A program made the position numbers and the translations under genes. Under the pieces are notes generated by a model that saw only the letters and a program-made list of their open reading frames with translations, was not told the DNA's origin and searched no databases. Of a stretch of DNA of 42,186 nucleotides, positions 9,088-32,339 are shown piece by piece (within the stretch, counting starts at the first letter, position 1; the number at the start of each line of letters is the position of its first letter). The stretch is from Phycisphaerae bacterium (GTDB lineage Bacteria > Planctomycetota > Phycisphaerae > WQYP01), in assembly GCA_044344145.1 (NCBI GenBank), contig JBIJDM010000002.1, forward strand, positions 1 to 42,186. Direction: 5' to 3'.

Positions 9088-9354
9088 ACGTTGGGACCTT
9101 TGGCTCCGGAGGTAACAATCCGAAACCGATCCGAATCAATTTAGCACACGACATCCGCGAAGCGTTATTTCCGGATAAGAACTGTCCGGCACGCTCCGAA
9201 TTCCAACTCGATCTCAGCACGCACTCAGCACGTAATCCGTGCGATATGTTAATTTCACGACTTCGTTGTCGTGTATCCTAAAGCGGCGCATTTTTTCCTG
9301 CAACTACAATGCGCGGGAAAATGTTCAAACCCGCGTTAATTTTCCGGTCCCGGC

Positions 9355-11157: not shown

Positions 11158-11212
11158 GACACGTCTCCATCAACAGCAGGCACAAAGCCTGTCGTTCATT
11201 GCCTGATCATTC

Positions 11213-12520: not shown

Positions 12521-12558
12521 AGCTGCTCCATGCCCTACCGGGCAGCAGGCCTAAATCA

Positions 12559-14778: not shown

Positions 14779-15441
14779 TTATTTTACTGCCGTGGGCTTG
14801 ACAGGTGGCCCCAAGGCCGTTTCGAGCGCGGTAACGACCACCGCGTCATCGGGCTTGGTCCGTGAGCCAAACCGGGCCATCAGTTGTCCCTGCCGGTCCA
14901 CCAGAAATTTGGCAAAATTCCACTCGATATCCCCGGCCATGGCGCCGGCGGTGGCCTTTTCGGTAAGAAATTTGTAGACCGGGTGCATTTCTTTACCCTT
15001 GACGGTGATTTTTTCCATCAGTGGAAAGGTCACATCGTAATTGAGGGTGCAAAATTGCCGGATTTCCGCAGGGGTACCGGGTTCCTGGCCGAGAAAATCG
15101 TTGGCCGGGAAGCCAATAATCACCAAACCCCGGTCCTTGTACTTGAGATACAGGGCTTCCAATTGTTTGTATTGCGGGGTCAGCCCGCACTTGCTGGCGA
15201 CATTGACGATTAGCACCACCTGCCCCTTGTGCTGCTTGAGTTCGGAGGGTTTACCCTCCAAATCCCGGACGGTGAAATCCAGCACACTGGGGGCCATCTG
15301 GGTGGTTGCCGGACCGGTAGTTGGAGCGGTGGATGGGGCTTGCACCACGTTACGTCCCGCCGCATAGATTTTGGCCGCAATTAACCCTGCCAAAATTGCC
15401 CCCAGACCCAACCCGCCGTATATAACCCAATGCCGGAGCAT
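14779..15441 (-). CDS. gpx: Glutathione peroxidase family (Cys-type), N-terminally membrane-anchored or secreted
   Basis: The three GPx signature blocks are present: VNVASKCGLTPQY, GFPANDFLGQEPG and WNFAKFLVDRQG. The N-terminus is hydrophobic (WVIYGGLGLGAILAGLIAAKIY). Confidence 0.9.
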   Translation of the reverse strand: MLRHWVIYGGLGLGAILAGLIAAKIYAAGRNVVQAPSTAPTTGPATTQMAPSVLDFTVRDLEGKPSELKQHKGQVVLIVNVASKCGLTPQYKQLEALYLKYKDRGLVIIGFPANDFLGQEPGTPAEIRQFCTLNYDVTFPLMEKITVKGKEMHPVYKFLTEKATAGAMAGDIEWNFAKFLVDRQGQLMARFGSRTKPDDAVVVTALETALGPPVKPTAVK

Positions 15442-15491: not shown

Positions 15492-16745
15492 TTATGTAGT
15501 CAAACCCGTCAAGTGCAGTAATTGGGTAGCCACCGCCGCGGGCGCGTGCCGGGTGGCCAAGAGGGGGCGTTGGATATGCGGTGGTGCGGCCAGACTGGTT
15601 GCGATGGCCCGGGCGAGGTCGGTGGCATTACCACTGGCGAATAATTGCCCCCCATACGACTGCACCCATTCCGGCATAGCGCCCGTGTCCGGAGCCACCA
15701 CCCCCACGCCACAACTCATGGCCTCCAAGGTGGCCAAGCCCCGACATTCCGGGATTCGGCTGGGCACACAAAACACCCGGCTGTGCTGCATGAGTTTGAT
15801 CTTTTCCGACCCGCTGAGTACCCCGTGGTACACCCACGGCCAGCGCTGCTGATCGAGCTTTTTTTGCACTTCCCGCATGTAGGTTTCGTGGCCGATGCGC
15901 CCGGCGATATGCAGGGTGATTTCCGTGCCCTGATCGGCCAAAATGCTGCAGGCATCCACCAGCAAATCGAGCCCTTTGGCGGGTGTAATCGTCGAAAGAT
16001 AGCCAATGGTATTTCCCGCCGGAGCGCTCACCGGGGGTCTGAATTTGTGGGTCGGCACGGGTGGGTATAGGACCTGTATCTGCTCCGGGGGCAGTTGCAG
16101 CCGGGACTGCATCGTTTCGCGGTGCCAGTGGGAACTGGCGAGTGTGCCCGTCACCTGTTTTACGCGAGTGCGTAATAAATCCCACGCCTGCTGACGCCAG
16201 GGGTCACCCAAGGCGTCCAGAAAATGTTCCTCTCCCTGAAGTCCACAGTAAATCGGCACCCCCGGCCAGTCGGGGAGGCTATCCAGCAGCCCCAACAACA
16301 TGCTGTTGCTGATACTCACCAGCCGGGGCACGGGCAGCGTTTTGAGGAATTTGCCGAGGCGCGCGAATTCTTTGGTTTGAAATCCGGCGCGGCCTTGCAG
16401 CATGGAAACCGTCATGGCCCCCAACGAGCGCGGATCGGTGGCGCTGGACCGGCGGGATAACAACCGCAGCAAGAACGAGGCATCCAAACCGCGGGTCAGC
16501 CAGGCCGGCAGGTGGCGGAACAGAGCGCTGGATTGACTCAGATAGACATTCAGCCCGCCCATATACAATGGGGCCAGATTTTCCGGTAACGTGCCGTCGG
16601 TGACCAGCGGGGTATACAACGGAATCAAACAGACATCATAGCCATGCACCTGCAGGGCCTGGGCCAGATATACATCGCGCTGACAGGCGCCGCAATGCGA
16701 TCCACCCGCCCCAGCGGTGAACATGAGTATCAACTCACGAGTCAT
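15492..16745 (-). CDS. GT4/GT-B-type glycosyltransferase-like protein, last gene of the redox operon
   Basis: The C-terminal GT-B motif is VFCVPSRIPECRGLATLEAMSCGVGVVAPDTGAMPEWV (EX7E-like). The start is set at MTRELIL (16745), which overlaps the upstream stop by 11 nt. The track's 20-aa extension lies inside the upstream gene. Confidence 0.75.
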   Translation of the reverse strand: MTRELILMFTAGAGGSHCGACQRDVYLAQALQVHGYDVCLIPLYTPLVTDGTLPENLAPLYMGGLNVYLSQSSALFRHLPAWLTRGLDASFLLRLLSRRSSATDPRSLGAMTVSMLQGRAGFQTKEFARLGKFLKTLPVPRLVSISNSMLLGLLDSLPDWPGVPIYCGLQGEEHFLDALGDPWRQQAWDLLRTRVKQVTGTLASSHWHRETMQSRLQLPPEQIQVLYPPVPTHKFRPPVSAPAGNTIGYLSTITPAKGLDLLVDACSILADQGTEITLHIAGRIGHETYMREVQKKLDQQRWPWVYHGVLSGSEKIKLMQHSRVFCVPSRIPECRGLATLEAMSCGVGVVAPDTGAMPEWVQSYGGQLFASGNATDLARAIATSLAAPPHIQRPLLATRHAPAAVATQLLHLTGLTT

Positions 16746-18273
16746 CCATACCTCCACGCCGCACAATCGCCCCGGTGGGACACACCTCGGCACAGCGGCT
16801 GGCACTATGCGTCAGGGCTTGGGCCCAACTGACCCCCAGCGGAGTCGCTAGATGAAAGGTAAGCCCCCGCCCCGCCAACGTCAAGCCCACGGGCTCGCGG
16901 GCCTGTTTGGTAACTTCCACGCACAAGCCGCAGCCGATACATTTGCTTATATCAATATCCACTTCCGGATGGCTGGTGATCAGGGGTGGGGGAATCTGGG
17001 TGGGGTTGTGGGTGGACCAGCGGGCACCATATTCTTCGGCATAATTCCGCAACCGGCAGGAATCCGCCACCGCGCAACCGCATTGCAGGCAGCGTTGGGC
17101 TTCCAGACTCATGGCCTCGGGGGTGTGGGTGGTGGTGGCCGGGGTCTGGGGGATAACGGTGATATGCGGATGGGGGCGATGAACTGAGAAACGCATAGGC
17201 TTCATGGTCGCTACTGGGTTCACGTGGGCCAGAAAATCGGCGTGAATCTGCTGGGCGGCTTTGCGGCCTTCGGCGAGACCTTTGACGGCCAGTCGCGTGG
17301 GGATGACCATCGCACCAGCGGCGTAAAGCCCGGTGGTCCCCAGCCGGTACGACTGGGTTAGTACCCCCTGCCCGCGCCAGGGCCAGCCATGGGCTTCGGC
17401 CAGCGCGGGAGTCATGGGGCCCAAGGCCAGCAGGACGGCATCGTATTGCCCGCGCAGATCGGCGGTGGTCAATTCGGGCCCGAAGGAGCAACCCAGGCGG
17501 AGTGTTATCCCCATACGGAGCAATACATCCAATTCGGCATCGAGCAGTTCTGGTGGCAGTTCGGCCGGGGGGACATGGGTCCGCAAGGCTCCACCCAGTT
17601 GGGTGGCTTTGTCTATGAGTGTGACGCGGTAGCCGCGCTGCAGGAGTTCGAAGGCAGCGGCCAGACCGGTGGGGCCGGTGCCGACGATGGCAACGGATTT
17701 GCCGGTGTCAGGGGCGCAGGTGGGCGGGCTGATGGGCCCGGAGGCCAGTTCCTGGGCGACCAGGCCGCGCTTCAAAGCGCACACGGCCAGTCCGCCGTCG
17801 TGGGCGCTGCGGTGACAACCTTTGGCACACGGCTCGGGACAAATATGACCTAGCACGCCCGGCAGGGCGATGGTCTGCCGTACCACGGCCAGGGCCTGGG
17901 CAAAGTCGCCCGCGCGGACCCAGCGGGCCACGCTGGGGACATCCATGTGGGCTGGGCAGGCTTGCGTGCAGGGGGCCACACAATCGCCGTAATGCTCGGA
18001 GAGCAGGAGTTCCAGACTCGCCCGGCGCGCGGCGAAGATAGCGTCGCTCTGGGTGGTGATGACCATGCCGTCCGACACCGGATGGCCGCAGGCGGGGATG
18101 AGATGATCCTGTCCGGCGACCTGTACCACGCAGACCATGCAGCAAACCTGGGGCGGGAGTGTGGGCTCGTAGCAGAGCGTGGGAATCGCGATGCCCAGCC
18201 GGGCGGCGGCGGTCACGATGGTGGTCGGTTCGGCAAGGGTGAGAGGTTGGCCATCAATGGTGATATGAATCAT
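16735..18273 (-). CDS. Fe-S flavoprotein: NuoG/HydA-type N-terminal [2Fe-2S] domain, GltD-like FeS/FAD domain, and NuoG-type [4Fe-4S] domains
   Basis: MIHITIDGQ...LCYEPTLPPQVCCMVCVV...PAC is a plant-type 2Fe-2S site as in NuoG. EHYGDCVAPCTQACPAH...ICPEPCAKGC matches the GltD N-terminal FeS region. VAIVGTGPTGLAAAFELLQRGYRVTLIDK...GG is a dinucleotide fold, and LYAAGAM follows. C-terminal FeS motifs are CLQCGC...C and CIGCGLCVEV...RCAEVCPTGAI. The ATG overlaps the upstream stop in an ATGA arrangement. Confidence 0.8.
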   Translation of the reverse strand: MIHITIDGQPLTLAEPTTIVTAAARLGIAIPTLCYEPTLPPQVCCMVCVVQVAGQDHLIPACGHPVSDGMVITTQSDAIFAARRASLELLLSEHYGDCVAPCTQACPAHMDVPSVARWVRAGDFAQALAVVRQTIALPGVLGHICPEPCAKGCHRSAHDGGLAVCALKRGLVAQELASGPISPPTCAPDTGKSVAIVGTGPTGLAAAFELLQRGYRVTLIDKATQLGGALRTHVPPAELPPELLDAELDVLLRMGITLRLGCSFGPELTTADLRGQYDAVLLALGPMTPALAEAHGWPWRGQGVLTQSYRLGTTGLYAAGAMVIPTRLAVKGLAEGRKAAQQIHADFLAHVNPVATMKPMRFSVHRPHPHITVIPQTPATTTHTPEAMSLEAQRCLQCGCAVADSCRLRNYAEEYGARWSTHNPTQIPPPLITSHPEVDIDISKCIGCGLCVEVTKQAREPVGLTLAGRGLTFHLATPLGVSWAQALTHSASRCAEVCPTGAIVRRGGMDDS

Positions 18274-20597
18274 CGGCGCACCGCCGTACTGCCGGACATG
18301 ATGGCAATCGCGTGTTCGGGACAACCGGTCCGGCACAAGTCACACTGGGTGCACAGGTCGAGATTAATTTTGGCTTTTTGGTACGGGAGCAAAGGAATGG
18401 CCTGCACCGGGCAGACCTGTGCGCACTTGCTGCAGCCGATACAGTCGGCGGTGACTTCGTAGTTGATCAGGGCTTTGCATACCCCCGCCGGGCATTGGCC
18501 GTTTTGGTGGGCGGTCCATTCGTCGGGGAAATAGCGCAAGGCGGATAACACCAGCCGCGGTGCATTGCGGCCCAAACCGCACATGCTGGCCTGCTGCATG
18601 TGCTGGCAGATTTGTTGTAGTTGGGCCACGTCGCCGGGCTTGGCGTTACCAGCCACGAAGCCTTCCAGCAGGGAGACCATACGGCGGGTGCCATAACGAC
18701 ACGGGATGCATTTACCGCAGGATTCCGCCGCGCTGAACCGGGCGAAATAGAGGCACAGGTCCAGCATGCAATCGGACTGATCCAGCGCGATGATTCCCCC
18801 GGAGCCCATGATACCGCCCAGCGTTTGCAGGGCTTCGAAGTCCACGGGGACGTGGCAATGTTCCGCCGGGATACAGGCTCCGGAAGGCCCGCCAAGTAGC
18901 ACGCCTTTGAGTTTACCCCCGGCGGCCATACCCCCACCCAGATCGTGAATCAGATCGTACAGGGAGATTCCCATGGGGACTTCCACCAAGCCGGGATGGC
19001 GTAATTTTCCCGCCAGACAGAACACCTTGGTGCCAGGGCTCGCAGCCGTGCCGGTGGCGCGAAATGCGCTTGCCCCGGTGGCGATCAAACTGGGAACCAA
19101 CGCGAGGGTTTCCACGTTATTGACGAGGGTGGGCTGACCATGCCAGCCGGATTGTGCGGGATAGGGAGGCCGGAGGCGCGGCACACCGCGCTGGCCTTCC
19201 AGCGAAGCGATGAGTGCGGTCTCTTCGCCGCAGATGTAAGCGCCCGCGCCGCGCTGCACCCGACAGGGAACGGCGAGCAATTGTTGGGCGTGCATCAGGG
19301 CCAGTGCGGCTTCGATCCGCGCGACGGCCATGGGATATTCCGCGCGAATATAAAAAATAATCGCCGACGCCCCCACCGCGTGCGCGGCAATCTGGGCGCC
19401 TTCCAGCACGCGAAACGGGAAGGACTCGAGCAACATGCGGTCCATGAAGGCACCGGGATCGCCTTCATCGCCATTGACGATGACGACCTTGTCGCCGGGG
19501 GCGGCGGCGACCAAGTCCCACTTGCGGCCACTGGGATAACCGGCCCCGCCGCGGCCGCGCAGACCGGCGGCGGTTACCTCGGTCCGGATCTGTGCGGGGG
19601 TCATGGTTTGCGCTTTGGACCAACCCTGCCACCCCCCGGCCTTGAGGTAACCGGCCCAATCGAGCGGATCATGGGTCCCGGCGGCGGCCATGGCATGGCG
19701 TTGTTGCTTGGCCAGAATCGTGGTCACCGGGCCCGCATGACTGATTTCGGCGGGGGCTGGGGTGTGCGTGCCGGTCAACCAGCGCTGCCCGAGTTGGGCG
19801 GCTTGCGTAAGTACTTTGCGCCAAGGTTGCAGCCGGCCCCGGGCCGCGGCCACGATGCCGGGGATCTGCTCGGGCCGGACCGAACCGAATAATTGTCGCT
19901 GGTCCCCCACCACCACTTCCACCATTGGCGCCGATTGGCACAGACCATTACACGCCACGGTTTGAATACTGATATTGCGCACGCCGCGCAGGGCCTGTTG
20001 CAAAGCTGCGTACAGCGCATCGGTGCCTTTGGCCACACAGCAGGAGTCTAAACAGACGCGCACCTGAACGGGGGCATCCATCGCCAGCATGGGTTTGAGG
20101 TCAATTGCAGCGACGGGTTCCGTCACGGTTTTCAGCAGCGCGGGCAGCGTGCTGGCTGTCTGCGTGCCATAAATCCGCGCGTCGGTTTGAATCACCGGGG
20201 CCATGCTGCAACAGCCCACGCAGGCTACGCCCTCGATGGTAAATTGCCCGGACGCATCAGTATCCGCATCGGGGTCCATATGCAGCAGGCGGCGCAGTTC
20301 CTGCTCCAGACGGCCACTGCCCTGCACATGACAGGCCGTGCCATGACACACACGCAGGATATGCTTGCCGGCGGGACGGCGCCGCCATTGACTGTAGAAC
20401 GAGGCCACACCTTCGATCTGGGCCAAGGGGAAACCACCGACCGCAGCCAGTTCGTGCAGGACTTCATTGGGCAGATAACCCCAATGTTCATGCACGGCCT
20501 GCAGGAGGGGCAAGAGGGCCTCGGGGGCGCGACCCGTTTGGGCAACGCGTTCCTGTAGCCAAGTGGTGATGGTGGGTGCGGTGAGGTCGGGCGTCAT
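18270..20597 (-). CDS. NuoE-NuoF fusion protein with HydB-type architecture (NADH-binding FMN/Fe-S flavoprotein)
   Basis: NuoE 2Fe-2S site: CHGTACHV...CVGCC. Thioredoxin-like 2Fe-2S site: VCLDSCC...CNGLC. NuoF motifs: GLRGRGGAGYPSGRKW, NGDEGDPGAF, YICGEETALIASLEG and ESCGKCIPCRYG...MCGLG. Two C-terminal ferredoxin motifs: CIGCSKCAQVCP and CTQCDLCRTGCP. The start is set at MTPDLTAP (20597), with an ATGA overlap to the upstream stop. The track's 123-aa Arg-rich extension lies inside the upstream gene. Confidence 0.85.
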   Translation of the reverse strand: MTPDLTAPTITTWLQERVAQTGRAPEALLPLLQAVHEHWGYLPNEVLHELAAVGGFPLAQIEGVASFYSQWRRRPAGKHILRVCHGTACHVQGSGRLEQELRRLLHMDPDADTDASGQFTIEGVACVGCCSMAPVIQTDARIYGTQTASTLPALLKTVTEPVAAIDLKPMLAMDAPVQVRVCLDSCCVAKGTDALYAALQQALRGVRNISIQTVACNGLCQSAPMVEVVVGDQRQLFGSVRPEQIPGIVAAARGRLQPWRKVLTQAAQLGQRWLTGTHTPAPAEISHAGPVTTILAKQQRHAMAAAGTHDPLDWAGYLKAGGWQGWSKAQTMTPAQIRTEVTAAGLRGRGGAGYPSGRKWDLVAAAPGDKVVIVNGDEGDPGAFMDRMLLESFPFRVLEGAQIAAHAVGASAIIFYIRAEYPMAVARIEAALALMHAQQLLAVPCRVQRGAGAYICGEETALIASLEGQRGVPRLRPPYPAQSGWHGQPTLVNNVETLALVPSLIATGASAFRATGTAASPGTKVFCLAGKLRHPGLVEVPMGISLYDLIHDLGGGMAAGGKLKGVLLGGPSGACIPAEHCHVPVDFEALQTLGGIMGSGGIIALDQSDCMLDLCLYFARFSAAESCGKCIPCRYGTRRMVSLLEGFVAGNAKPGDVAQLQQICQHMQQASMCGLGRNAPRLVLSALRYFPDEWTAHQNGQCPAGVCKALINYEVTADCIGCSKCAQVCPVQAIPLLPYQKAKINLDLCTQCDLCRTGCPEHAIAIMSGSTAVRR

Positions 20598-23500
20598 GGG
20601 GCCGCCTCCGGGGCGGCTTGCCCTTCCTTGAGGCACCAGAGATGCTTGTCGCCCCGCACATACATCCGCCCCGCCACCAGCGCGGGACCGGCGCGGACAG
20701 GTTCGCCCAGCCGCCAGGTGCCCACTTCGCGGAACGTGTCGGCCATGGCGAAGATATGCACCTCGCCGGCATCGGTGAACCAGTAGACCTGCTTGCCTGC
20801 CAGCACCGGATTGCTGTAGGAATGCTGACCGAAGTCGTGCGTCCAGAGGACTTTGCCATCGGCCAATTGGTAACAGGTGATTTTGCCTTCGGAGGCGAAG
20901 GTTAAGAGCAATTTGCCATCGGTCAACGGGCTGACGGTATCGGGCAGGGACGAATCGCTGCGCCATAATTCTTTGGGCGGTTGGCCGGACGTGGCGGTGG
21001 CGAGATCGAATACCGCTGTGATGGCATTGGCGTTGCTGACGGCCAGATAATTACCCGCTTGTACCGGGGTGGTGGAGACATCGTTGCTCAAAACTTCCAA
21101 GCGCCACAATTCACGCCCGGTCGCCGGGGCGTAGGCAATCACATTGGGGTTCGCACAAGTCAGCAGCGCGGGCGTGCCATCGGCTTGAGTAATCAGGCGC
21201 GGGGTGCTCCACGATCCGCCCATGGTACGGGGCACGCGCCACAATTGCCGGCCCGTCAGCGGGTCCAACGCCAGCAACGCGGACGAAGTGGCGGCATCCT
21301 GATCGTATTGAATAATCAAACGTTCCCCGGCCAACAGCAAACTACTCGCGTAGCCGTAAGCATTATCCACTACCCCCAGCCGTTTTTGCCAGACCTTTTC
21401 ACCGCTGACGCGCACACACACAACTTCACCAGTCGCCCACGTGGCCCAGACATAACGCCCGTCCGTCACCGCGGTGCTGGCGGCGCGAATGGTGGGCTCC
21501 AACACTTTCGGCGGTGGCGTCAGGCCCGGCCAGCTATGCGTCCAGCGCAGATTTCCGGTATCGGCGGCAAAGCACCAGAGGACGTTGGTTTGTTCGTCGG
21601 CGCCGGTCAGGAAGACATCATTACCCCAAACCACGGGGGAACTATCACCACCGAGGGGTAATTCCGCCTGCCAGCGGACTCCGTGACCAACAGGGGCATC
21701 GAATTTGCCCGGCCAGCAGCCGGGGGCGGCCACGCCGTTCATGTCGGGGCCGCGGAATTGGGGCCATTGCTGAGTCCAGATTCTAGCGTCAGGCGGAACG
21801 TATTGGGCGGGTGCGGTGGTGGCCACCGCGACATCGGTTCGCATTACAGGTTGATAAACCACCAGCAAGACCAGCCCCATGCTGACCAACCCACCACCCG
21901 CGCCAATGCCCCAGTAGGTTTGGCGCAGCCATTGGGGCCGTTCGTCGCGGCGTGGCAGACGCAGGTCGGGCAGATCACGCTGGCCACGGCGACCCAGCTT
22001 CCACAATATCACCGTCAGGGTCACCCCGAGTAACAGGGCGCCGCCCGCATTGGTGAAGAAGGTCACCCGCCATTCATATTCCTGACGCAGTTGTACATCG
22101 AGGGTGCGGATTTCCGCACGCAAGGTTTCGGGGTTGGGTGCGGTCAGGAGTTGGGTTTGCAGGTTCGCAATTTGCTCGGTTAGGAGCGGACTTTTCAGAC
22201 CACCGCGCAGATACACCCCCAGCATGAGCAGTGCGAGGATCACGGTGAGTGTCAGGGTGACCATGGCGCTGCGTTGCCAGGCCAAGTGCCGGGGCGGGAG
22301 CGCCACCGGGGCGGACGGGGTACCCAGTAATACCACTTGCGCACCGGGTTCCACGGTCTGGGGGCAATAGTCATAGCACCGGCCACAGGCGAGGCAATCC
22401 GCACTGCTGGCCAGATAATCCGCCTGGGGCTGACCACGCTGATATCGCCACCACCACGCCAGCAGAATCAGCGCCAGGGCCGCGCCTAGAACGGCGGTGG
22501 CGCTTTGCATACGGGTTTGAATCTGCCGGGCGGCGGTGAGTAACAGACCACGGTCTTCACCCAGCGCGGCAAAGGCTGCCATTGCGGTGCCGGGTTTGGG
22601 TAATGCGCCCGGAGTTTGTGCCTCCACCTGCGCGGCCAGTTGCACGGTGGGATGCCACTGGGCGAGTGTCAGTCCACCCCGCCAGCCCAGACCGGCCCAT
22701 ACGAGTACCGCAATCATTCCGCCCAGCAGCCACCAGACCCGCCGGGAGGAGCCGGTGGGGTTCAGCGCTTTTTCTGCGGGTAATTTAATCGCCCCAAATG
22801 GACAACTTTTTTCACACAACCGGCATTGGATACAGGTGGTCGGGGTCACGGTCACCGGCTTGCGGGCCAATGGCCCCAGCGCGCTCAACAGCGCCCCATA
22901 CGGACACAGCCACCGGCAATAGGGCCGACCCACCCACATACTCAGCAGTACAAAGCCCCCCGCCACCAGCAGCATTCCTACCCCCGCGTAACGGCGGAAG
23001 ACCACAACAAAGGGATCGTATTCACAAATCAGCCAGCGCGTGCCGGTGTAGGCGAGAATAAACGCCAAGCCCAAATACACCCACGGCAACAAGCGCAAAA
23101 CCCGGTCCACAGCCACCGGGACGTTCAGCGGTTTGAGCAGGACCAAATCCTGCAAAGCGCCCAGTGGACACACGCCAGCGCAAAACACGCGGCCATAAAA
23201 AAGTGTCCACACCAACGGCAAAGCCACATACACCCCCACCGCCCACGGCAGGGAATATTCCGCCGACCCCAGCGCCAGGGCCACATTCTGCAGACCCCCA
23301 ATGGCACAGACGCAGCCGCCACGATAAAAACCGAAGTACAACACCGAAGCCAGACTCAGCCACGCCAAGCCGGTGCGCTGCCGCCGGGCATGCACCAGCC
23401 AGGTCGCCACCACCATAAACGCCACCAGCATGGCCACATCCAGCACCACCATGCCCGACCAACTTAGCCGCGCCCCGGCGGGTAAATCCGTGGCCGGGAT

Positions 23501-23599
23501 GGTATAGCCGGTGGAAAACTCCGGCGGGGGAAAGCGCGCCTCCGCCCAGAGCGGGAGCGCCGTGGCGAACAAGACGAGGATGGTCAGGAGCTTGCGCAT
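20594..23599 (-). CDS. Fusion protein: NapH/CcoG-like CX3CP membrane polyferredoxin (~10 TM) plus a C-terminal PQQ-like beta-propeller
   Basis: Signal-like N-terminus MRKLLTILVLFATALPLWA. Two CX3CP motifs lie at membrane edges (FCAGVCPLGALQD and YCRWLCPYGALLS). The ferredoxin motifs are CIQCRLCEKSCP and CLACGRCYDYCP. Further TM segments run to about residue 600. From WPQFRGPDMNG (~21766) a propeller follows with repeated tGxxlW strands (TGNLRWTH, TGRQLWRV, TGRELWRL, DGKVLWTH). The start overlaps the upstream stop by 1 nt. Confidence 0.8.
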   Translation of the reverse strand: MRKLLTILVLFATALPLWAEARFPPPEFSTGYTIPATDLPAGARLSWSGMVVLDVAMLVAFMVVATWLVHARRQRTGLAWLSLASVLYFGFYRGGCVCAIGGLQNVALALGSAEYSLPWAVGVYVALPLVWTLFYGRVFCAGVCPLGALQDLVLLKPLNVPVAVDRVLRLLPWVYLGLAFILAYTGTRWLICEYDPFVVVFRRYAGVGMLLVAGGFVLLSMWVGRPYCRWLCPYGALLSALGPLARKPVTVTPTTCIQCRLCEKSCPFGAIKLPAEKALNPTGSSRRVWWLLGGMIAVLVWAGLGWRGGLTLAQWHPTVQLAAQVEAQTPGALPKPGTAMAAFAALGEDRGLLLTAARQIQTRMQSATAVLGAALALILLAWWWRYQRGQPQADYLASSADCLACGRCYDYCPQTVEPGAQVVLLGTPSAPVALPPRHLAWQRSAMVTLTLTVILALLMLGVYLRGGLKSPLLTEQIANLQTQLLTAPNPETLRAEIRTLDVQLRQEYEWRVTFFTNAGGALLLGVTLTVILWKLGRRGQRDLPDLRLPRRDERPQWLRQTYWGIGAGGGLVSMGLVLLVVYQPVMRTDVAVATTAPAQYVPPDARIWTQQWPQFRGPDMNGVAAPGCWPGKFDAPVGHGVRWQAELPLGGDSSPVVWGNDVFLTGADEQTNVLWCFAADTGNLRWTHSWPGLTPPPKVLEPTIRAASTAVTDGRYVWATWATGEVVCVRVSGEKVWQKRLGVVDNAYGYASSLLLAGERLIIQYDQDAATSSALLALDPLTGRQLWRVPRTMGGSWSTPRLITQADGTPALLTCANPNVIAYAPATGRELWRLEVLSNDVSTTPVQAGNYLAVSNANAITAVFDLATATSGQPPKELWRSDSSLPDTVSPLTDGKLLLTFASEGKITCYQLADGKVLWTHDFGQHSYSNPVLAGKQVYWFTDAGEVHIFAMADTFREVGTWRLGEPVRAGPALVAGRMYVRGDKHLWCLKEGQAAPEAAP

Positions 23600-24174
23600 C
23601 AGTCGCCGCGGGCTCCGGTGAGTTGGTTATAGGCTTTATCCGCATCTTTGCGGCTGATGGCCCCGGCGGGGCATTGTGCGGCGATGGCACATTGGTTGCA
23701 CTGCTGACATTCCGCATGACTGATCTGCAGGTACAACGAGCCATTGCCGTAATCCTGACAGCCTTGGACACAGCGGCCGCAGCCGATGCAGCGGTCCCAG
23801 TCAATGGTGTAAGCGTAATACGGGTCTTCGACGCTCTTGCGCACAATCGCATTCACCGGGCACAATTGATTTTCCGCGCCGGTGTTGAATTGCTCGGGCT
23901 TGGGGGTGAAATAACCGGAACAAATATTGCAATAACCACAGGCGGAATAGGCGTGCACACACTTCACCGCGGAGGGGGTTTTGACACAGGCCGAGGCGCA
24001 GCGGCCACAGCGGATGCAGCGGCGCGGATCGATCTGCCAGACTTGGGCGCCTTGCAGGCGCGCGGTACGCGTGGCCAGATAGCCGGCCCCGCCGGCGATG
24101 GTCACCAGCGCGGCGCCGCGCAGAATCCAGTGCATAAATTCGCGGCGTGAGGTGGGCGTGGGTTCGTCTGCCAT
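23599..24174 (-). CDS. Tat-signal periplasmic polyferredoxin, NapG-like (about four [4Fe-4S] motifs)
   Basis: The start is set at MADEPTPTSRREFMHWILRGAALVTIAGGAG, a twin-arginine SRREFM motif plus an h-region. Cys clusters: CIRCGRCASAC, CGYCNIC...CPVNAI, CIGCGRCVQGC and CQQCNQCAIAAQCP. The ATG lies 1 nt after the upstream stop. Confidence 0.8.
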   Translation of the reverse strand: MADEPTPTSRREFMHWILRGAALVTIAGGAGYLATRTARLQGAQVWQIDPRRCIRCGRCASACVKTPSAVKCVHAYSACGYCNICSGYFTPKPEQFNTGAENQLCPVNAIVRKSVEDPYYAYTIDWDRCIGCGRCVQGCQDYGNGSLYLQISHAECQQCNQCAIAAQCPAGAISRKDADKAYNQLTGARGD

Positions 24175-24175
24175 G

Positions 24176-24889
24176 TTACACCTTTCGTCCAAAAACTTTG
24201 ACCACGCCGTGATCCAGGGCATACACCCGCCCCTGGGCATCCACGGCCAACGCTTCTGGTCCAACGCGGGGATCGGTAAAATCTTCCGGTCCGGCGACAA
24301 CTTCCAGTAATTCCCCCGTCATACTGTAAATTTTGATCATCGCGATGATCTTCTGGGCCACGACGATGTGCCCTTCGGGGGTGAAATCCAGCAATACGGG
24401 GTTGCAGCAGCCGGGGAATTGCTCGGTGGCGATGCCGGGCTGGCCCCAGCGCCGGAGCAATTTGCCGTCCGCACTGTACGCCTGTAATTCATGCTGGCCG
24501 GGATTGGTCAGCCAGATTTCGCCGGCTTTGCTGACCCGCACCTGCGCTGGGGCGCGATACACCACCAGCCCCTCGGCCTTGGTAGTCACATCCGGTCCGC
24601 CGAGATGATTGAGAATCTGCCCGTTGGCATCGCGCTGGATAAAACAGCGTCCCGGCGCGTCATACGTGAAGGTATCGGTACTGATCGCCTGAGTCGCGGA
24701 TACTAGCGCCGTGGTGGCGGGTAATTTCTCCAGCAGGACAAACGTACGCCATTTCGGGTCAATGCGGGTATCGGGAATCTGTTTGGGGGTAGGCTCGGTA
24801 TTCTGGGCGTTCTGTTTCAGCAGCACGCCGGTGCCCACCGCCACGACGGCCACGCCCGCGAGGATATACAGCTTTTTGTTATTTTCCAT
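24176..24889 (-). CDS. Membrane-anchored periplasmic NHL-repeat-like protein
   Basis: The start is set at MENNKKLYILAGVAVVAVGTGVLL, an N-terminal anchor. NHL-like units include RWGQPGIATEQFPGCCNPVLLDFTPEGHIVVA...IKIYS and PEALAVDAQGRVYALDHGVVKVF. The ATG lies 1 nt after the upstream stop. Confidence 0.65.
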   Translation of the reverse strand: MENNKKLYILAGVAVVAVGTGVLLKQNAQNTEPTPKQIPDTRIDPKWRTFVLLEKLPATTALVSATQAISTDTFTYDAPGRCFIQRDANGQILNHLGGPDVTTKAEGLVVYRAPAQVRVSKAGEIWLTNPGQHELQAYSADGKLLRRWGQPGIATEQFPGCCNPVLLDFTPEGHIVVAQKIIAMIKIYSMTGELLEVVAGPEDFTDPRVGPEALAVDAQGRVYALDHGVVKVFGRKV

Positions 24890-24890
24890 C

Positions 24891-26318
24891 TCACGGCCCC
24901 TCCGGTAAATCGTAACAGACCATCTCATCAAGATCGCGCACGATCAGGCCCCGGCCACTCACGGCCATGGGAGCCCAGCTTTCATGCCCCTGGAGCAAAC
25001 GCGCCTGGGCCCGCACAGTAAAGCCATCCGGCCGTGCAGCCATGACGGTCAAACGGCCACGATCGTCCAAGGCCCAGAGGCTGTCACCGGCCAGAAAATA
25101 GGGCCCCAGGCCAAAGCGTACCGCGCCGCTGCTCCACTTGCGTGTGGCCGTCAGGGGGTCCAGACAGACCATCTCTCCGCCGGGCACCACGCCGTAGACG
25201 TGTCCATCGTGAGTGATGGGGGTATGTTGCTCGGCGCCGAATTCATTGGCCTTGAAAGTATGCACCCGCTGCACCTGCCAGTGGTCTTCGACCAGCGCGA
25301 GTTTGATGACCTGTGCCCCCGCGCCGTAACCGCCGGCGAGTAGCAGATGATCTTCACCTACCACCACGGGCGAGGCCACGACGGCCTGAGGAATCCGCCA
25401 ACCGGGATAGGTCCATAATAACGTACCGTCGTTACTGATTCCCGCCACGCCGCCGGTGTAACAGGCCACGTACATGCGTTGGCCCGCGAGGGTCAGGGGC
25501 GTCAGACTGGCATGGGTCTGTTCCCATCCAGCCAATTCCGCCGGGGCATCCAACTGCCAGAGCACCTTGCCGGTTGAAGGGTCCAAGGCCAGCATGAGCA
25601 CCTTGCCCCCGACGGCGACGAGTAATTTGCCATCATCCGCCAGCAAGCATTGACCCGCATACCACTCTGGCACGCGCGCCTGATATTGGGCGCATAAATC
25701 CAAGCCCCACAAATAAGCCCCAGACTTTATATCCACCGCCATCAGATGTAATTTCGGCCCCAGCGTGATGACCACATCCCCCACCACCATCGGCACGGTG
25801 CGCGATACGCCGTGATTGCTTTTGGTCTTGAGCGTGTAACCCCGCCGCCAGAGTTCCTGGCCATCGTGGATATTCCAGCAGCGCAGGACATCCCCGCCGG
25901 TGTTCTGCCACTTGGGATCGTAATCCAGCAGCATGACGCGTCCCTGCGCCACCACCGGCCCGGCATAGCCCGGCCCGAGCATGGGCACCCGCCAGCGGAC
26001 CTGAGGACCGGCGCTGGGCCAATGGTAGGACAGTGCTTCGGAGTGTACCCCATCGCGTAATGGCCCCCTGAAGCCGGGCCAGAGCGGTGTGACGGCGGGG
26101 TCCGCGCTGGCAAAGGTCTGTAAGGTGCCGGTGATATCCAGCGGCTTTTTTCCCGCCCCATCGGCAACACCTCCATCCAAGCCCGGCACCCGCAGAGCGG
26201 GCGCAGGTCGGGAAGATTGCCATACCAGTGCCACCATGGCCAAAGCACAAGCCAAACCGACCACCAGTGGTATCCCGTACGGCGCGAAGCGTAATTGGCG
26301 CGTGGGCATCCGTAACAT
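24891..26318 (-). CDS. Membrane-anchored PQQ-like (BamB-family-like) beta-propeller protein, first gene of the redox operon
   Basis: N-terminal anchor IPLVVGLACALAMVALVW. LWPGFRGPLRDG is followed by repeated propeller strands (DGQELWRR, SGAYLWGL, TGKVLWQL, DGTLLWTY). There is no SD, which is consistent with a near-leaderless start. Confidence 0.8.
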   Translation of the reverse strand: MLRMPTRQLRFAPYGIPLVVGLACALAMVALVWQSSRPAPALRVPGLDGGVADGAGKKPLDITGTLQTFASADPAVTPLWPGFRGPLRDGVHSEALSYHWPSAGPQVRWRVPMLGPGYAGPVVAQGRVMLLDYDPKWQNTGGDVLRCWNIHDGQELWRRGYTLKTKSNHGVSRTVPMVVGDVVITLGPKLHLMAVDIKSGAYLWGLDLCAQYQARVPEWYAGQCLLADDGKLLVAVGGKVLMLALDPSTGKVLWQLDAPAELAGWEQTHASLTPLTLAGQRMYVACYTGGVAGISNDGTLLWTYPGWRIPQAVVASPVVVGEDHLLLAGGYGAGAQVIKLALVEDHWQVQRVHTFKANEFGAEQHTPITHDGHVYGVVPGGEMVCLDPLTATRKWSSGAVRFGLGPYFLAGDSLWALDDRGRLTVMAARPDGFTVRAQARLLQGHESWAPMAVSGRGLIVRDLDEMVCYDLPEGP

Positions 26319-26326
26319 AATACCGG

Positions 26327-26355
26327 ATTTTAATGTCTTATTTTGTTATTTCCAA
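26327..26355 (-). promoter_or_regulatory. Candidate sigma70-type promoter of the leftward redox operon (near-leaderless)
   Basis: On the minus strand: TTGGAA (26355-26350), a 17-nt spacer, then TAAAAT (26332-26327). Only 8 nt separate the -10 hexamer from the ATG at 26318, and there is no SD. Confidence 0.35.
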
Positions 26356-26370
26356 GTTTTTAGGTATCAT
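26343..26370 (+). promoter_or_regulatory. Candidate sigma70-type promoter of the rightward propeller/ABC operon
   Basis: TTGTTA (26343-26348), a 16-nt spacer, then TATCAT (26365-26370). Its -35 element is back-to-back with the -35 of the leftward promoter. The region is AT-rich in an otherwise GC-rich genome. Confidence 0.3.
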
Positions 26371-26398
26371 CAGGCTACATTTTATGAAAGGTTTAACC

Positions 26399-27622
26399 AT
26401 GCGACGGATGGGATTGGCCGTATTAACTACACTCGCGGTGGTCTCTTTGGCCCCGGTTTACGCCGCTTGGCCGCGCTATTTGGGCCCGCAAGGCAATGGT
26501 TTTGCCGATGATGTGGGGATCAACAAAGACTGGAACAACAAAGCGCCCAAGAAGCTGTGGACCATGCCGTTATCGGATAATGGCTATGGCGGGCCGATCG
26601 TGGCCGATAAAAAAGTATTCATCATGGACCACACCGGCGGCGGTGGCGGTCAGGATGTCATCCGGGCATTGGATTTGGAAACCGGGAAACAGGCATGGGA
26701 ATTCGCCTTTGTCTCCAAGGGCAGCAAAGACAATTATGGTTTTACCCGTCCGAGTCCCTGTTATGCCGGGGGGATGCTGTACATCTCCGGCAAAATGGGT
26801 GAGATTGCCTGTCTGGATGCCAATACCGGCAAGGGGGTGTGGGAAAAACATTTGGTGAAAGACTTCGGCGGCAATCCCCCCAAGTGGGAATTTTCCGCCT
26901 CCCCGGTCGTGGATGAAGACCGTCTGCTCATTCAGCCCGGGGGCAAGACTTCGCTGGTCGTGCTGAACCGTAAAGATGGCAAGACGATCTGGCAGGGACC
27001 GGCATCCAATGGTTCGGCGGGTTATGCCGCCCCGGTCAAAGCCAAAATCGGCGGCGTGGAGCAGTACGTCATCATGACGGATGCCGAATGTTGGGGTCTG
27101 GATTACAAGACCGGGGCCAAGCTCTGGAGTTTTGAGTGGAAAACCAATTTCGGCGTCAACGCCTGTGTGCCGATTGTGATCGGCGATCAGGTATTGGTCT
27201 CCAGCGGTTACAACATGGGCACCGGGTTATACCAGATCACCGATAACAAAGCCACGCAGGTGTGGTTCACCAACGAGGCAAAATCGCGTTTCAGCACGCC
27301 GATCTACCATAATGGCTTTGTTTACAGCACCGGCGATCAGAAAACCCTTGCGTGTTTGGATATCAAGAACGGCAAGCCTGTATGGACGGTCAAGGGTTTT
27401 GAGTGGGGTGGTCTGCTGGCGGCCGATGGCACTTTGATTGTGATGGATGCCAAGACCGGCGCGCTGGTGCAATATGCCCTGGACGGCACGGCGGCCAAGG
27501 AACTAGGCCGGATGGAAAAACCGGTTGGCGGCAAGAATAACTTCTGGACCGCTCCGGTACTCAGCGAAGGTCGGCTGGTCCTGCGCAGCCCGGTGGAACT
27601 GGCCGTCTACGATTTGAAATAA
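26399..27622 (+). CDS. Secreted PQQ-like beta-propeller protein
   Basis: Signal peptide MRRMGLAVLTTLAVVSLAPVYA|A, then WPRYLGPQGNG, then repeated strands TGKQAWEF, TGKGVWEK, DGKTIWQG, TGAKLWSF and NGKPVWTV. The start at 26399 is chosen because AAAGG lies 7 nt upstream. ATGs at 26384 and 26333 are alternatives. Confidence 0.8.
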   Translation: MRRMGLAVLTTLAVVSLAPVYAAWPRYLGPQGNGFADDVGINKDWNNKAPKKLWTMPLSDNGYGGPIVADKKVFIMDHTGGGGGQDVIRALDLETGKQAWEFAFVSKGSKDNYGFTRPSPCYAGGMLYISGKMGEIACLDANTGKGVWEKHLVKDFGGNPPKWEFSASPVVDEDRLLIQPGGKTSLVVLNRKDGKTIWQGPASNGSAGYAAPVKAKIGGVEQYVIMTDAECWGLDYKTGAKLWSFEWKTNFGVNACVPIVIGDQVLVSSGYNMGTGLYQITDNKATQVWFTNEAKSRFSTPIYHNGFVYSTGDQKTLACLDIKNGKPVWTVKGFEWGGLLAADGTLIVMDAKTGALVQYALDGTAAKELGRMEKPVGGKNNFWTAPVLSEGRLVLRSPVELAVYDLK

Positions 27623-27638
27623 GTCCGCAAGGAACCCC

Positions 27639-28304
27639 ATGCTAACCTTGCACGCGGTCAGTAAGAGTTACCCCACGCCGCAAGGCGCACTGGCGGTATT
27701 GGATGGGCTGGACGCAGTATGGGGACCCGGCACGTATGCACTGATGGGCGCATCGGGTTCGGGCAAGAGCACGCTGCTGAATCTGATTGCGGGACTGGAC
27801 ACCCCCACCGCCGGGGAGATTCGGTTTGAGGGGACGGCATTAGCCAGCTACACCGCAGCCCAAATGGATGCCTATCGGGCGCGGACCATCGGACTGTTGT
27901 TTCAAGAGCATCATTTACTGGGTCATCTCACGGCGCTGGATAATGTGCTGCTGGCCACGCTGGCGGTGGATGCCCCACAACCCCGCGCGGTGGCGCTGGA
28001 ATTATTGGCGGAGCTGGGGATTGATCGACGCATGGCCTTTGCCTATCCGCACCAACTCTCCGGCGGGCAGTGCCAGCGCGTCGCGCTGGCTCGGGCCCTG
28101 ATCAATCAGCCACGCATGTTACTGTGCGATGAACCCACCGGCAGTCTGGACGCGGCCACCGCCCGGCAAGTCGCCGCGACGATTACACAAATCGCCCAGC
28201 GCCGCGGCCTGATCGTATTGGTCGTCACGCATAATCCCGATCTGGCCGCCCTGATGCAGCAACGGTATCACCTGGCGGATGGCCACCTGACGCGACAGAC
28301 CTAG
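27639..28304 (+). CDS. ABC transporter ATP-binding protein (LolD/MacB/FtsE-like)
   Basis: Walker A GASGSGKST, Q-loop LLFQEH, signature LSGGQCQRVALARAL, Walker B MLLCDEPTGSLD and H-loop VVTHN. Confidence 0.95.
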   Translation: MLTLHAVSKSYPTPQGALAVLDGLDAVWGPGTYALMGASGSGKSTLLNLIAGLDTPTAGEIRFEGTALASYTAAQMDAYRARTIGLLFQEHHLLGHLTALDNVLLATLAVDAPQPRAVALELLAELGIDRRMAFAYPHQLSGGQCQRVALARALINQPRMLLCDEPTGSLDAATARQVAATITQIAQRRGLIVLVVTHNPDLAALMQQRYHLADGHLTRQT

Positions 28305-28313
28305 GAGTATGCG

Positions 28314-31277: not shown

Positions 31278-31280
31278 ACC

Positions 31281-32339
31281 TTGCGTTACGCTGGTTATAT
31301 CTGCGGATTGGCCCTGCTCCTGATTATGGGGGTCTGGGCCGCTGCGCCCACGCCTCCGACCACCCGACCACTAAAGCCGGAAATCGTCTGGTCACAAAAC
31401 TTTGGCAAACGACTGAAAGCCACGCCGGTCATGACGCCGGCCGGGCTGATCCTGCCCACCGATGCGGGACAGGTCCATTTGCTTGATCCCGCCACCGGCA
31501 AGCCGATCTGGTCCGCCCCCGTCGAGGGCAGCGCGGGGCAGGCGACCTGCACCGACAAGCTGGTTTATCTGGGCGATGAAGATGGGTTCATGCGTTGTCT
31601 GGACCTCGCCACCGGCAAAGAGCGCTGGCAATTCGCCACCCAGCAAACCATTGTCGGCGCCCCGCTGTTGGCGGATGGCCGGCTCTACTTTGGCTCGTAT
31701 AATCACAAGGTCTATGCGGTGGATGCCGTCACGGGCAAGGAGCTTTGGAGCTTTACCACCGATGCGGAAGTACATGCCCCACCCCGGCTGGTGGACAATA
31801 TGCTGCTGGTCGGGGGCTGCGATGGCTTTGTGCGGTGGTTGGATCCGGCCACCGGCAAGGAAGTGCAGCAATACAAGCTTGGACAGAATGTCGCCAGTGC
31901 TCCACTGATTGATACCAGCGTCAAACCCCCACTCGTGGTGGTCGCGGGCATGACCGGCCAAGTGACCGCCCTGACGGCAGCGGATAAAGTGCTCTGGCAA
32001 TTTGATCTGAAAAAGAAAATCCAAGCCGACCTGATTGCCCTGCCTGATGCGGTGGGTTTGTATACACTGGATGGGTTGTTTATGGTCCTCAATCGCGACA
32101 CCGGCAAGACGCTGGCGCGGTTCAAACTCGAGGACGGCGAACGCTGTGCCCCGCTCCTCACCGCCGATACGATCTATCTGATCGGCGATAACGAGCTTAA
32201 TGCACTGAACCTGAAAACCTATAAGAAACGCTGGGATTTTAAACTTACCGGCCAGCCGCTGGCCACCCCCGCCATCACACCCGAGGCGCTTTATATCGCG
32301 CAGGAAAACGGCACGCTGATCAAGCTGCGTTTGCCCTGA
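31281..32339 (+). CDS. Secreted PQQ-like beta-propeller protein
   Basis: TTG start with GGAG 6 nt upstream, 3 nt after the permease stop. Signal peptide MRYAGYICGLALLLIMGVWAAA. Repeated strands are TGKPIWSA, TGKERWQF, TGKELWSF, TGKEVQQY, DKVLWQF and YKKRWDF. Confidence 0.8.
   Translation: MRYAGYICGLALLLIMGVWAAAPTPPTTRPLKPEIVWSQNFGKRLKATPVMTPAGLILPTDAGQVHLLDPATGKPIWSAPVEGSAGQATCTDKLVYLGDEDGFMRCLDLATGKERWQFATQQTIVGAPLLADGRLYFGSYNHKVYAVDAVTGKELWSFTTDAEVHAPPRLVDNMLLVGGCDGFVRWLDPATGKEVQQYKLGQNVASAPLIDTSVKPPLVVVAGMTGQVTALTAADKVLWQFDLKKKIQADLIALPDAVGLYTLDGLFMVLNRDTGKTLARFKLEDGERCAPLLTADTIYLIGDNELNALNLKTYKKRWDFKLTGQPLATPAITPEALYIAQENGTLIKLRLP

Follow-up and report, generated by a model that had tools for sequence, protein, structure and literature searches.

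A rare natural fusion of a NapH-like polyferredoxin with a BamB-like propeller in a Phycisphaerae bacterium, and the widespread, apparently heme-free gene cluster behind it

Introduction

Nitrate, nitrous-oxide and organohalide respiration depend on membrane proteins of the NapH, NosR and RdhC type. Still unsettled for these proteins are the source of their electrons, how or whether the electrons cross the membrane, and what the CX3CP motifs do (PMC5928378). NapH is in contact with NapG in the periplasm and with the iron-sulphur (Fe-S) protein NapF in the cytoplasm (PMC5928378), and NapH-like proteins have been proposed to be modular transmembrane electron conduits for varied periplasmic oxidoreductases, including the propellers of pyrroloquinoline quinone (PQQ)-dependent alcohol dehydrogenases (PQQ-ADH) (PMC8238504). 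Here, we analyse a protein of this superfamily in which a NapH-like polyferredoxin runs on into a beta-propeller within a single chain of 1001 amino acids (aa), together with the gene cluster around it. The protein is encoded in a 42,186-nucleotide (nt) stretch of DNA from a Phycisphaerae bacterium (contig JBIJDM010000002.1 of assembly GCA_044344145.1), which we call the window and whose positions are used throughout.

Two further described systems bear on this architecture. MauMN is encoded in the cluster of methylamine dehydrogenase, the heavy chain of which is a beta-propeller, and BamB is a scaffold lipoprotein of the beta-barrel assembly machinery (BAM) complex. Meheust et al. (2021) described flavinylated 'NapH-like systems', some of whose clusters hold PQQ-ADH propellers (ExaA), and noted NuoF-like cytosolic donors for MsrQ-like conduits (PMC8238504). 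As that survey was limited to flavinylation-associated clusters, it would not capture the cluster found here (PMC8238504).

Results

A natural but rare fusion

In the 1001-aa protein, two subunits that adjacent genes usually encode separately are joined by a natural but rare fusion. A first-pass annotation of the window, made without database searches, had reported the open reading frame (ORF) and its layout without stating the strand; it is a single open frame, on the minus strand. Nor is the fusion confined to one assembly, since the frame runs unbroken across the junction (query residues 115-813) in a 94%-identical contig of another metagenome-assembled genome (MAG; L007, 'Phycisphaerae bacterium ELA289') and at least 10 homologues with 34-42% identity (P0002-P0011), from different samples, have the same single-chain architecture.

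We scanned one genome per GTDB species, which gave at least 586 relatives, and used the best 80, covering query residues ~1-990, for locus counts. Two adjacent genes, one for a NapH-like protein (~420-470 aa) and one for a propeller protein with three transmembrane (TM) helices (~570-660 aa), stand in 73 of these ~80 loci; by BLASTP against locus L006 (Bacteroidota), the split comes directly behind the second ferredoxin motif. A library of 1.84 billion representatives gave a similar picture, with ~10-12 full-length fusions and more than 120 of the top 150 matches being the propeller subunit alone. Hosts among the Bacteroidota include the cultured strains Sunxiuqinia elliptica CGMCC 1.9156 and Gaoshiqia sediminis A06 as well as Prevotella, Rikenellaceae and Prolixibacteraceae, and further loci belong to Verrucomicrobiota, Planctomycetota, Aminicenantes, Armatimonadota, Chitinispirillia, Poribacteria and Aegiribacteria. 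In a rough, approximate neighbour-joining tree of the NapH-like proteins the fused forms are confined to the Planctomycetota/Verrucomicrobiota part, where they occur in three or four separate places, a pattern suggesting that two subunits already acting together were fused more than once.

The first-pass annotation knew of no description of this architecture. Full-text literature searching found no paper describing either the fused architecture or the cluster, and no curated family for them was found. The adjacent gene pair itself is common, if unannotated. At the split junction itself, 22 of the 73 pairs are in the same frame with a single stop between them (10 TAA, 9 TGA and 3 TAG). Programmed read-through or selenocysteine insertion was considered there and rejected, as 22 of 73 is the one-in-three expected by chance and the stops are mixed.

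Anatomy of the fusion protein

Every motif named in the first-pass annotation was found: the CX3CP motifs FCAGVCPLG (C140/C144) and YCRWLCPYG (C228/C232), the CX2CX2CX3CP ferredoxin motifs CIQCRLCEKSCP (C256-C266) and CLACGRCYDYCP (C402-C412), and WPQFRGP (W612), which opens a propeller of 390 aa (~612-1001) after the last TM segment. The proposed region of ~10 TM helices also holds, a hydropathy scan placing 10 of them at residues ~51-69, 78-96, 116-134, 164-185, 203-223, 288-306, 364-382, 446-464, 514-532 and 563-581, with which the helices of an AlphaFold2 model agree. That model has a mean predicted local distance difference test score (pLDDT) of 78.8 (~90 in the NapH-like core, mostly 85-95 in the propeller) and shows ~32 C-terminal strands. 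When the proteins of the window were scanned against Pfam and NCBIfam, the fusion matched Fer4_5 twice (the NapH/NosR-type CX3CP domain), Fer4, Fer4_17 and PQQ_2 (E=2e-23).

The CX3CP motifs follow TM3 (C140-x3-C144-P) and TM5 (C228-x3-C232-P) and are invariant in sets of 11, 33 and 78 sequences. Both ferredoxin motifs are conserved and they are non-contiguous, ~135 residues lying between them that include a hairpin of TM6 and TM7, in the predicted periplasmic loop of which H316 is invariant among fused forms. The core also carries a cysteine triad, formed by C96 and C98 (GCVC) and C192 (CEYDPF). Among 78 NapH ORFs, GC[VIL]C occurs in 77 and CxYDPF in 74, while the two CX3CP motifs occur in all 78; in an alignment with NosR-type relatives, the latter have GGFVSVSH in place of GC(V/I)C and QYFEPF in place of CxYDPF. 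The predicted topology would put C96, C98 and C192 towards the periplasmic face.

Outside the core, the periplasmic motif RFPPPEF, directly after the signal peptide, is conserved in the alignment of fused homologues, and the three-TM anchor holds a long periplasmic helix with a conserved IRxLDxxLR motif (R498, D501, R505). The linker of residues ~413-445, which is the point of the gene split in other lineages, is variable and modelled with low confidence. Searches of the PDB by sequence and profile and with Foldseek, in which propeller matches dominated, gave no solved-structure match for the membrane core.

Membrane topology

Hydropathy, the bias of lysine plus arginine (K+R) and gene fusions in relatives together give a self-consistent topology, in which both CX3CP motifs and both ferredoxin motifs are predicted to be cytoplasmic and the propeller periplasmic; the first-pass annotation had named a cytoplasmic propeller with an inconsistent TM count as the outcome that would speak against its proposal. 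The N-terminus is placed in the periplasm because of the signal peptide and because elsewhere a Tat-exported (twin-arginine translocation) ferredoxin is fused ahead of RFPPPEF (L006, P0012-P0021). The ferredoxin motifs are placed in the cytoplasm because cluster insertion demands it; in nine protein clusters (P0025-P0033, L005) the NapH-like chain runs on into a NuoE domain right after these motifs. Three TM helices lie between the second ferredoxin motif and the propeller. Across 11 homologues the K+R density is 0.52, 0.09, 0.15, 0.16 and 0.22 in the successive loops predicted to be cytoplasmic, and 0.07, 0.04, 0.09, 0.10 and 0.15 in those predicted to be periplasmic.

The fused propeller

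The propeller is of the BamB/PQQ_2 type, not of the type of the PQQ enzymes. Foldseek matched it to BamB with TMt values of 0.75-0.78 and to the designed Cake8 propeller with 0.83; the BamB model TIGR03300 scores 57.4 against a cut-off of 285.2, and the domain has no lipobox, is TM-anchored and stands in a redox operon. In the 11 fused homologues it has no invariant histidine, its sole invariant cysteine is C989, near the C terminus, and its invariant residues mostly follow the blade-repeat motif. Very similar propellers are found in unrelated planctomycete proteins, namely BlaR1-like and FGE-sulfatase fusions. Hence the suggestion of the first-pass annotation that the propeller side is the business end is not borne out, and the domain is most likely a docking platform for periplasmic partners, not a catalyst. 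A PQQ enzyme in particular was rejected, the model TIGR03075 scoring 21.5 against a cut-off of 480.05, PF01011 being unreported, and vicinal cysteines lacking along with the invariant histidine; no pqq genes were seen within the 42-kb window.

A conserved cluster with telling fusions

Synteny was scored over 85 loci from at least eight phyla, with stop-to-stop ORFs assigned by best BLASTP match and with many loci ending at a contig edge. The canonical order is PQQ_2 propeller (one to five copies), a 475-aa PQQ_2 propeller (PQQ475), an NHL-repeat protein, the Tat-exported ferredoxin (Tat-ferredoxin), the NapH-like protein, the three-TM propeller, a NuoE-NuoF protein (NuoEF), a GltD-like protein, a further PQQ_2 propeller, a glycosyltransferase (GT4), an ATP-binding cassette (ABC) ATPase and an FtsX permease. 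The Tat-ferredoxin gene is directly upstream in 77 of the 85 loci, NuoEF directly downstream in 61, and a GltD-like gene is present in 48. In the window, the seven genes from PQQ475 to GT4 (with the fusion in place of the split pair) all lie on the minus strand, overlapping or with gaps of at most 1 nt. In its entry on the fusion, the first-pass annotation had overlooked this telling setting, with the Tat-ferredoxin upstream and NuoEF downstream.

Gene fusions in other lineages tie neighbours on the electron path proposed below to one another. The Tat-ferredoxin is joined to the periplasmic N-terminus of NapH in single chains (P0012-P0021, L006); NuoE is joined to NapH at the cytoplasmic ferredoxin domain (P0025-P0033, L005), these relatives having the two ferredoxin motifs contiguous and no TM hairpin; PQQ475 and the NHL protein are one chain, with GCCNP kept, in P0309 and P0313 (773 and 814 aa); and the three-TM propeller is fused to a second PQQ_2 propeller in P0125, P0126 and P0131.

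No known terminal reductase and no widely conserved extra gene was found in the clusters, the largest unassigned family occurring in at most 6 of the 85 loci, and NapA, NosZ and methylamine dehydrogenase are absent both from the window and from the recurrent genes of the 85 loci. No protein of the cluster has a CxxCH heme motif. None of the curated NCBIfam models tested on the cluster components reaches its cut-off, and the annotations carried by the PQQ475 family and the few named fusion homologues are generic ('PQQ-binding-like beta-propeller repeat protein', 'BamB', 'ferredoxin').

The neighbouring proteins

The Tat-ferredoxin has an SRREFM twin-arginine signal, a Tat motif being present in 74 of 77 orthologues, and its stop codon overlaps the start codon of the fusion by 1 nt. 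On the other side, the ATG of NuoEF overlaps the fusion stop codon (ATGA) and a Shine-Dalgarno site is present. NuoEF matches 2Fe-2S_thioredx, Complex1_51K and NADH_4Fe-4S in Pfam, and the NADH, FMN and N3-cluster motifs of its NuoF part are intact (GRGGAGYPSGRKW, GAGAYICGEETAL and ESCGKCIPCR). With a score of 380 against the NuoF equivalog cut-off of 558.65 it is a relative, not a complex-I NuoF. The GltD-like protein has a single dinucleotide-binding motif (GTGPTG) and may be an FAD/Fe-S connector as opposed to a second NAD(P)H site. Its relative beside P0003 is reduced to 345 aa (Fer2_4 and Fer4_20 only).

Of the periplasmic neighbours, PQQ475 has invariant D132, H169, R173, Q223, H269 and R461 and near-invariant C147, C224, C385 and C468 (55-74 sequences). 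Its fold is BamB-like, without an enzyme match, and H169, C224 and H269 each stand just before the first strand of successive blades, positions that suggest a site in the central pore. The NHL protein carries the vicinal-cysteine motif GCC[NGSD]P in 70 of 72 orthologues and matches NHL domains of the TRIM/Brat type, with no enzyme match. By their conservation, PQQ475 and the NHL protein appear better candidates for a catalytic or substrate site than the fused propeller. For the NHL/SGL-like neighbour, a lactonase-type (clade III) NosZ was rejected, as it has no cupredoxin domain and no His-rich site and its match is of the TRIM/Brat type.

Further features concern the window or individual loci. 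The NHL gene is shortened at its N-terminus here: its product has 237 aa, as compared with ~320-348 aa at every other locus, and lacks about two blades but keeps the TM anchor and GCCNP. The end of the PQQ475 gene, 1 nt away, leaves no room upstream. GT4 matches no curated family, and its motif PGSGG(S/T)FYC(G/Q)NC(L/F)RD, with a CxxC, is seen in 21 of 22 orthologues by eye and in 16 by a narrower regular expression. The ABC, FtsX and PQQ_2 genes run divergently here, but are co-linear with the redox genes, and overlap with them, in Bacteroidota and several Planctomycetota; the FtsX permease of the divergent operon is duplicated (987 aa), with a first periplasmic domain of ~430 aa. At 14779-15441 (minus strand), 50 nt past the end of the operon, stands a gene for a glutathione peroxidase whose N-terminus has a hydrophobic segment; it is not conserved beside the cluster elsewhere. 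Further on, positions 6133-14532 (minus strand) encode a secretin (984 aa), a PilM/FtsA-like protein (657 aa) and two unannotated ORFs (435-600 aa), a set that resembles those of type IV pili or of type II secretion-like systems and appears unrelated to the fusion. In other genomes, L015, L023, L025, L083 and a few more loci (including Bacteroidaceae and Prevotella) have extra genes upstream of the cluster, being one or more of radical-SAM, polyprenyl-synthase-like and squalene-cyclase/prenyltransferase-repeat-like genes, each in 4-6 loci, and in the Phycisphaerae MAG GCA_022072085.1 a gene of the PDDEXK_3 nuclease family stands between the NapH::NuoE and NuoF genes (L005:9769-10185).

Table 1. 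Coordinates, in the window, of the fusion gene, its parts and the neighbouring genes of the cluster.
Feature	Position	Strand	Description
Fusion gene	20594..23599	-	1001 aa, ATG start; NapH-like polyferredoxin, three-TM anchor and periplasmic propeller (predicted)
Signal peptide, Sec-type, cleavable-looking	23537..23599	-	aa 1-21, MRKLLTILVLFATALPLWA/EA; hydropathy
NapH-like core	22739..23536	-	aa 22-287: TM1-5, two CX3CP motifs, Cys triad, first CX2CX2CX3CP motif
TM6-TM7 hairpin, second CX2CX2CX3CP motif (C402-C412) and linker	22310..22738	-	Hydropathy, alignment, AlphaFold2
Three-TM anchor, TM8-10	21824..22309	-	aa ~446-581; its counterpart in the 73 split loci opens the separate protein of ~570-660 aa
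BamB-like (PQQ_2) propeller, 8-bladed	20597..21823	-	aa 593-1001, WPQFRGP start at W612; Pfam, Foldseek
Tat-exported polyferredoxin	23599..24174	-	191 aa, 17 Cys, four CX2CX2C-type motifs; starts MADEPTPTSRREFMHW
NHL-repeat propeller, membrane-anchored	24176..24889	-	237 aa; vicinal-Cys motif FPGCCNP
PQQ475, membrane-anchored 8-bladed PQQ_2 propeller	24891..26318	-	475 aa; AlphaFold2 pLDDT 90.7
NuoE-NuoF-2x[4Fe-4S] fusion protein	18270..20597	-	775 aa; predicted cytoplasmic NADH-oxidising flavoprotein module
NuoG-N/GltD-like protein	16735..18273	-	NuoG-N 2Fe-2S, GltD-like FeS/FAD and Nqo3-like ferredoxin domains
GT4 glycosyltransferase	15492..16745	-	Last gene of the packed operon; N-terminal CxxC, G-S-H-C-G-A-C-Q-R-D
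Divergent operon	26333..32339	+	PQQ_2 propeller (429 aa), MacB/LolD-type ABC ATPase, FtsX permease, PQQ_2 propeller (352 aa)

Discussion

A proposed electron conduit

Here, we propose, with little better than even confidence, that the cluster encodes a heme-free, NADH-fed, NapGH-like transmembrane electron conduit on which the fused propeller serves as a scaffold. The anatomy, motifs, folds, synteny and gene fusions reported above are observed; which cofactors are bound, which way electrons run, how they cross the membrane and what each propeller does are inferred from them. NADH would give up its electrons at the FMN of the NuoE-NuoF protein, and Fe-S centres in NuoEF and the NuoG/GltD-like protein would relay them to the [4Fe-4S] clusters on the cytoplasmic side of the NapH-like part. 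They would then cross the membrane by way of the cysteine-rich core, from the two CX3CP motifs at the inner face to the CxC...C triad further outward, possibly with H316, and reach the Tat-exported, NapG-like ferredoxin with its four putative clusters. This in turn would reduce the membrane-anchored, periplasmic pair of PQQ475 and NHL protein, in which the conserved His and Cys residues and the vicinal cysteines suggest a metal or redox site. A scaffolding role like that of BamB in the BAM complex is the most likely one for the fused propeller, which would keep the periplasmic partners at the conduit.

Several points weigh against this proposal. Even for NapH and NosR it is unsettled what the CX3CP motifs do, and only 8 Fe were measured per NosR (PMC5928378), so that an Fe-S wiring which spans the membrane is hypothetical. 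Seven loci (L003, L004 and its duplicate L036, L017, L030, L038 and L082) have no NuoEF despite enough flank, so NADH cannot be the required donor in every case. In the periplasm, every component looks like a binding scaffold (BamB, NHL) and none like a known enzyme. A purely respiratory model does not account for the co-conserved GT4 and MacB-type ABC transporter, and the multiple PQQ_2 propellers are likewise left unexplained. Lastly, the topology on which the proposed path depends is built from hydropathy, K+R bias and the logic of fusions, and the K+R bias is weak for the last loops.

A bolder form of the proposal, possible yet on the doubtful side in our judgement, is that this is a new respiratory-type complex: a heme-free and possibly quinone-independent Fe-S/flavin wire from NADH to a propeller redox enzyme made of PQQ475 and the NHL protein, in which the CxC...C triad, perhaps with the histidine, is a relay of the NapH/NosR type. 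If true, the triad (plus His) would be the missing transmembrane relay of NapH/NosR-type proteins, and PQQ475-NHL a new kind of propeller redox enzyme.

Alternative explanations

The best-placed alternative to the conduit, which we regard as unlikely, is a quinol dehydrogenase of the NapGH/NosGH type that would pass electrons from menaquinol to the Tat-ferredoxin and on to the periplasm, with NuoEF and the cytoplasmic Fe-S domain as accessories (for example in poising or repair). The nearest curated families are indeed NapH/MauN and the NapH quinol dehydrogenase, the partner is a Tat-ferredoxin as in NapGH, some loci are without NuoEF, and the membrane segments of NapH are held to oxidise quinol (PMC5928378, PMC8238504). 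An accessory role, however, fits poorly with NuoEF standing directly downstream in nearly all loci with enough flank, with its translational coupling to the fusion in the window, and with the single NapH::NuoE chains of nine protein clusters; the score of the fusion is also far under the NapH cut-off (50.5 vs 213.05).

An improbable alternative keeps the NADH-linked conduit and turns it round, so that a periplasmic propeller enzyme would oxidise a donor and electrons would flow inward to NAD+ (or FAD or ferredoxin) in an electrogenic redox half-loop. Modules of the NuoEF/HoxEFU type are reversible, and nothing in the sequence fixes the direction; moreover, NapH-like systems may serve oxidases as well as reductases, as in the ExaA clusters (PMC8238504). 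Reduction of NAD+ would, however, require a periplasmic donor of very low potential, no subunit resembling a hydrogenase, a formate dehydrogenase or another low-potential dehydrogenase is present in the cluster, and the propellers are without known dehydrogenase cofactor signatures.

It seems to us quite improbable that catalysis or substrate binding takes place on the fused propeller itself, as it would if this were, say, a quinoprotein-like or metal-dependent oxidoreductase mounted on the conduit. Its covalent attachment to the conduit, a set of invariant polar residues (D766, Q767, R791, S753 and S796) and weak similarity to the propeller enzymes PQQ-ADH and tetrathionate hydrolase speak for such a role. 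The invariant positions are, however, mostly those of the blade repeat, with no histidine and no cysteine other than C989, and the scores, best structural matches and reuse in unrelated fusions set out above speak against it. The domain is, besides, usually a separate subunit, and the conservation of PQQ475 and the NHL protein is far more site-like.

In view of the co-conserved GT4, ABC ATPase and duplicated FtsX permease, and of every periplasmic part being scaffold-like, the cluster might instead encode a machine for envelope biogenesis or export, with BamB-like and NHL scaffolds, a MacB/LolCDE-like ABC transporter and GT4, for which the Fe-S/NADH module would be a redox sensor or regulator. 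NosR was itself first described as a regulator-type protein. We hold this to be very improbable: for a sensor, a full, conserved chain of many Fe-S motifs, with an exported four-cluster ferredoxin among its members, would come at a high cost, neither Pfam nor NCBIfam revealed a domain for DNA binding or signalling, and several loci have the core of PQQ475, NHL, ferredoxin, NapH and propeller without GT4 or ABC genes in the available flank. Finally, a sequencing, assembly or gene-calling artefact, which the split of most relatives at exactly the same junction might bring to mind, is scarcely credible in the face of the continuous ORF, the independent open contig, the fused homologues from different samples and a junction linker that varies in length, as it would in real fusions.

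Significance

The fused chain is a modest curiosity, and the widespread, NADH-linked, heme-free cluster behind it the more interesting object: a large and entirely unannotated gene set in abundant polysaccharide-degrading phyla. Its genetics are unusually explicit, with fusions that join the membrane core to a periplasmic ferredoxin at one face and to an NADH-dehydrogenase module at the other, and its additional conserved cysteine triad sits where a transmembrane relay would be needed. The presence of the cluster in the cultured strains Sunxiuqinia elliptica CGMCC 1.9156 and Gaoshiqia sediminis A06 makes these questions directly testable.

Comparison with known systems

The first-pass annotation had labelled the protein NapH/CcoG-type and named CcoG as a cupric reductase. 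The first half of the label stands, the N-terminal half belonging to the NapH/NosR superfamily (Fer4_5); the CcoG function is not indicated. With CcoG, FixG and RdxA the fusion shares a PF12801-type membrane polyferredoxin with two [4Fe-4S] motifs. Unlike them, it has no FixG_C or other Ig-like domain (Pfam and NCBIfam, E<=0.01) and no context of cbb3 oxidase assembly, a periplasmic ferredoxin and propellers accompany it, and nothing points to copper.

The PF12801 membrane core is also that of NosR, NirI and RdhC (PceC), with which the fusion shares the proposed role of a modular transmembrane conduit. It differs from these proteins in having no FMN_bind domain (PF04205) and no flavinylation motif, a Tat-ferredoxin being the probable periplasmic acceptor instead, and it scores 23.9 against a cut-off of 1000 with the NosR model NF046105. 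The cysteine triad (GCVC, CxYDPF) sets it apart from the aligned NosR-type relatives, NapH itself standing outside that alignment.

The propeller resembles BamB (YfgL) in its 8-bladed fold, in having no cofactor-binding signature and in its plausible role in protein docking. It is no lipoprotein, being anchored by three TM helices or fused to NapH, and its context is redox chemistry rather than the BAM complex. On the cytoplasmic side, NuoE, NuoF and the NuoG-N-like Fe-S protein, with intact NADH and FMN motifs, recall the N-module NuoEFG and the diaphorase HoxEFU. Here, however, the partner of the module is a NapH-like protein and not complex I, a hydrogenase or MsrQ; the tie is genetic, in some lineages also covalent, and the third subunit of the module has a GltD-like insertion with the single dinucleotide-binding motif.

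The closest likeness is to NapGH, NosGH and MauMN, which have the same four-TM core with two CX3CP motifs and the same two cytoplasmic CX2CX2CX3CP motifs. It further shares with these modules an adjacent Tat-exported four-cluster ferredoxin and, as proposed here, the service of a periplasmic redox partner. It is nonetheless not a member of the curated NapH/MauN families, scoring 50.5 against 213.05 for TIGR02163 and 46.4 against 234 for NF007013, and the split Sunxiuqinia orthologue is likewise below both cut-offs; the Tat-ferredoxin scores 19 against 269 with the NapG model, hence it is analogous to NapG and not orthologous. Compared with these modules, the fusion has an extra N-terminal TM helix with a signal peptide, a TM hairpin between the ferredoxin motifs and an attached three-TM propeller subunit, and its cluster is linked to NuoEF and has no NapA, NosZ or methylamine dehydrogenase. 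Thus, by analogy, the fusion would work most like NapGH and NosGH, from which it differs in its donor module, its propeller subunit, its split ferredoxin domain and its cysteine triad.

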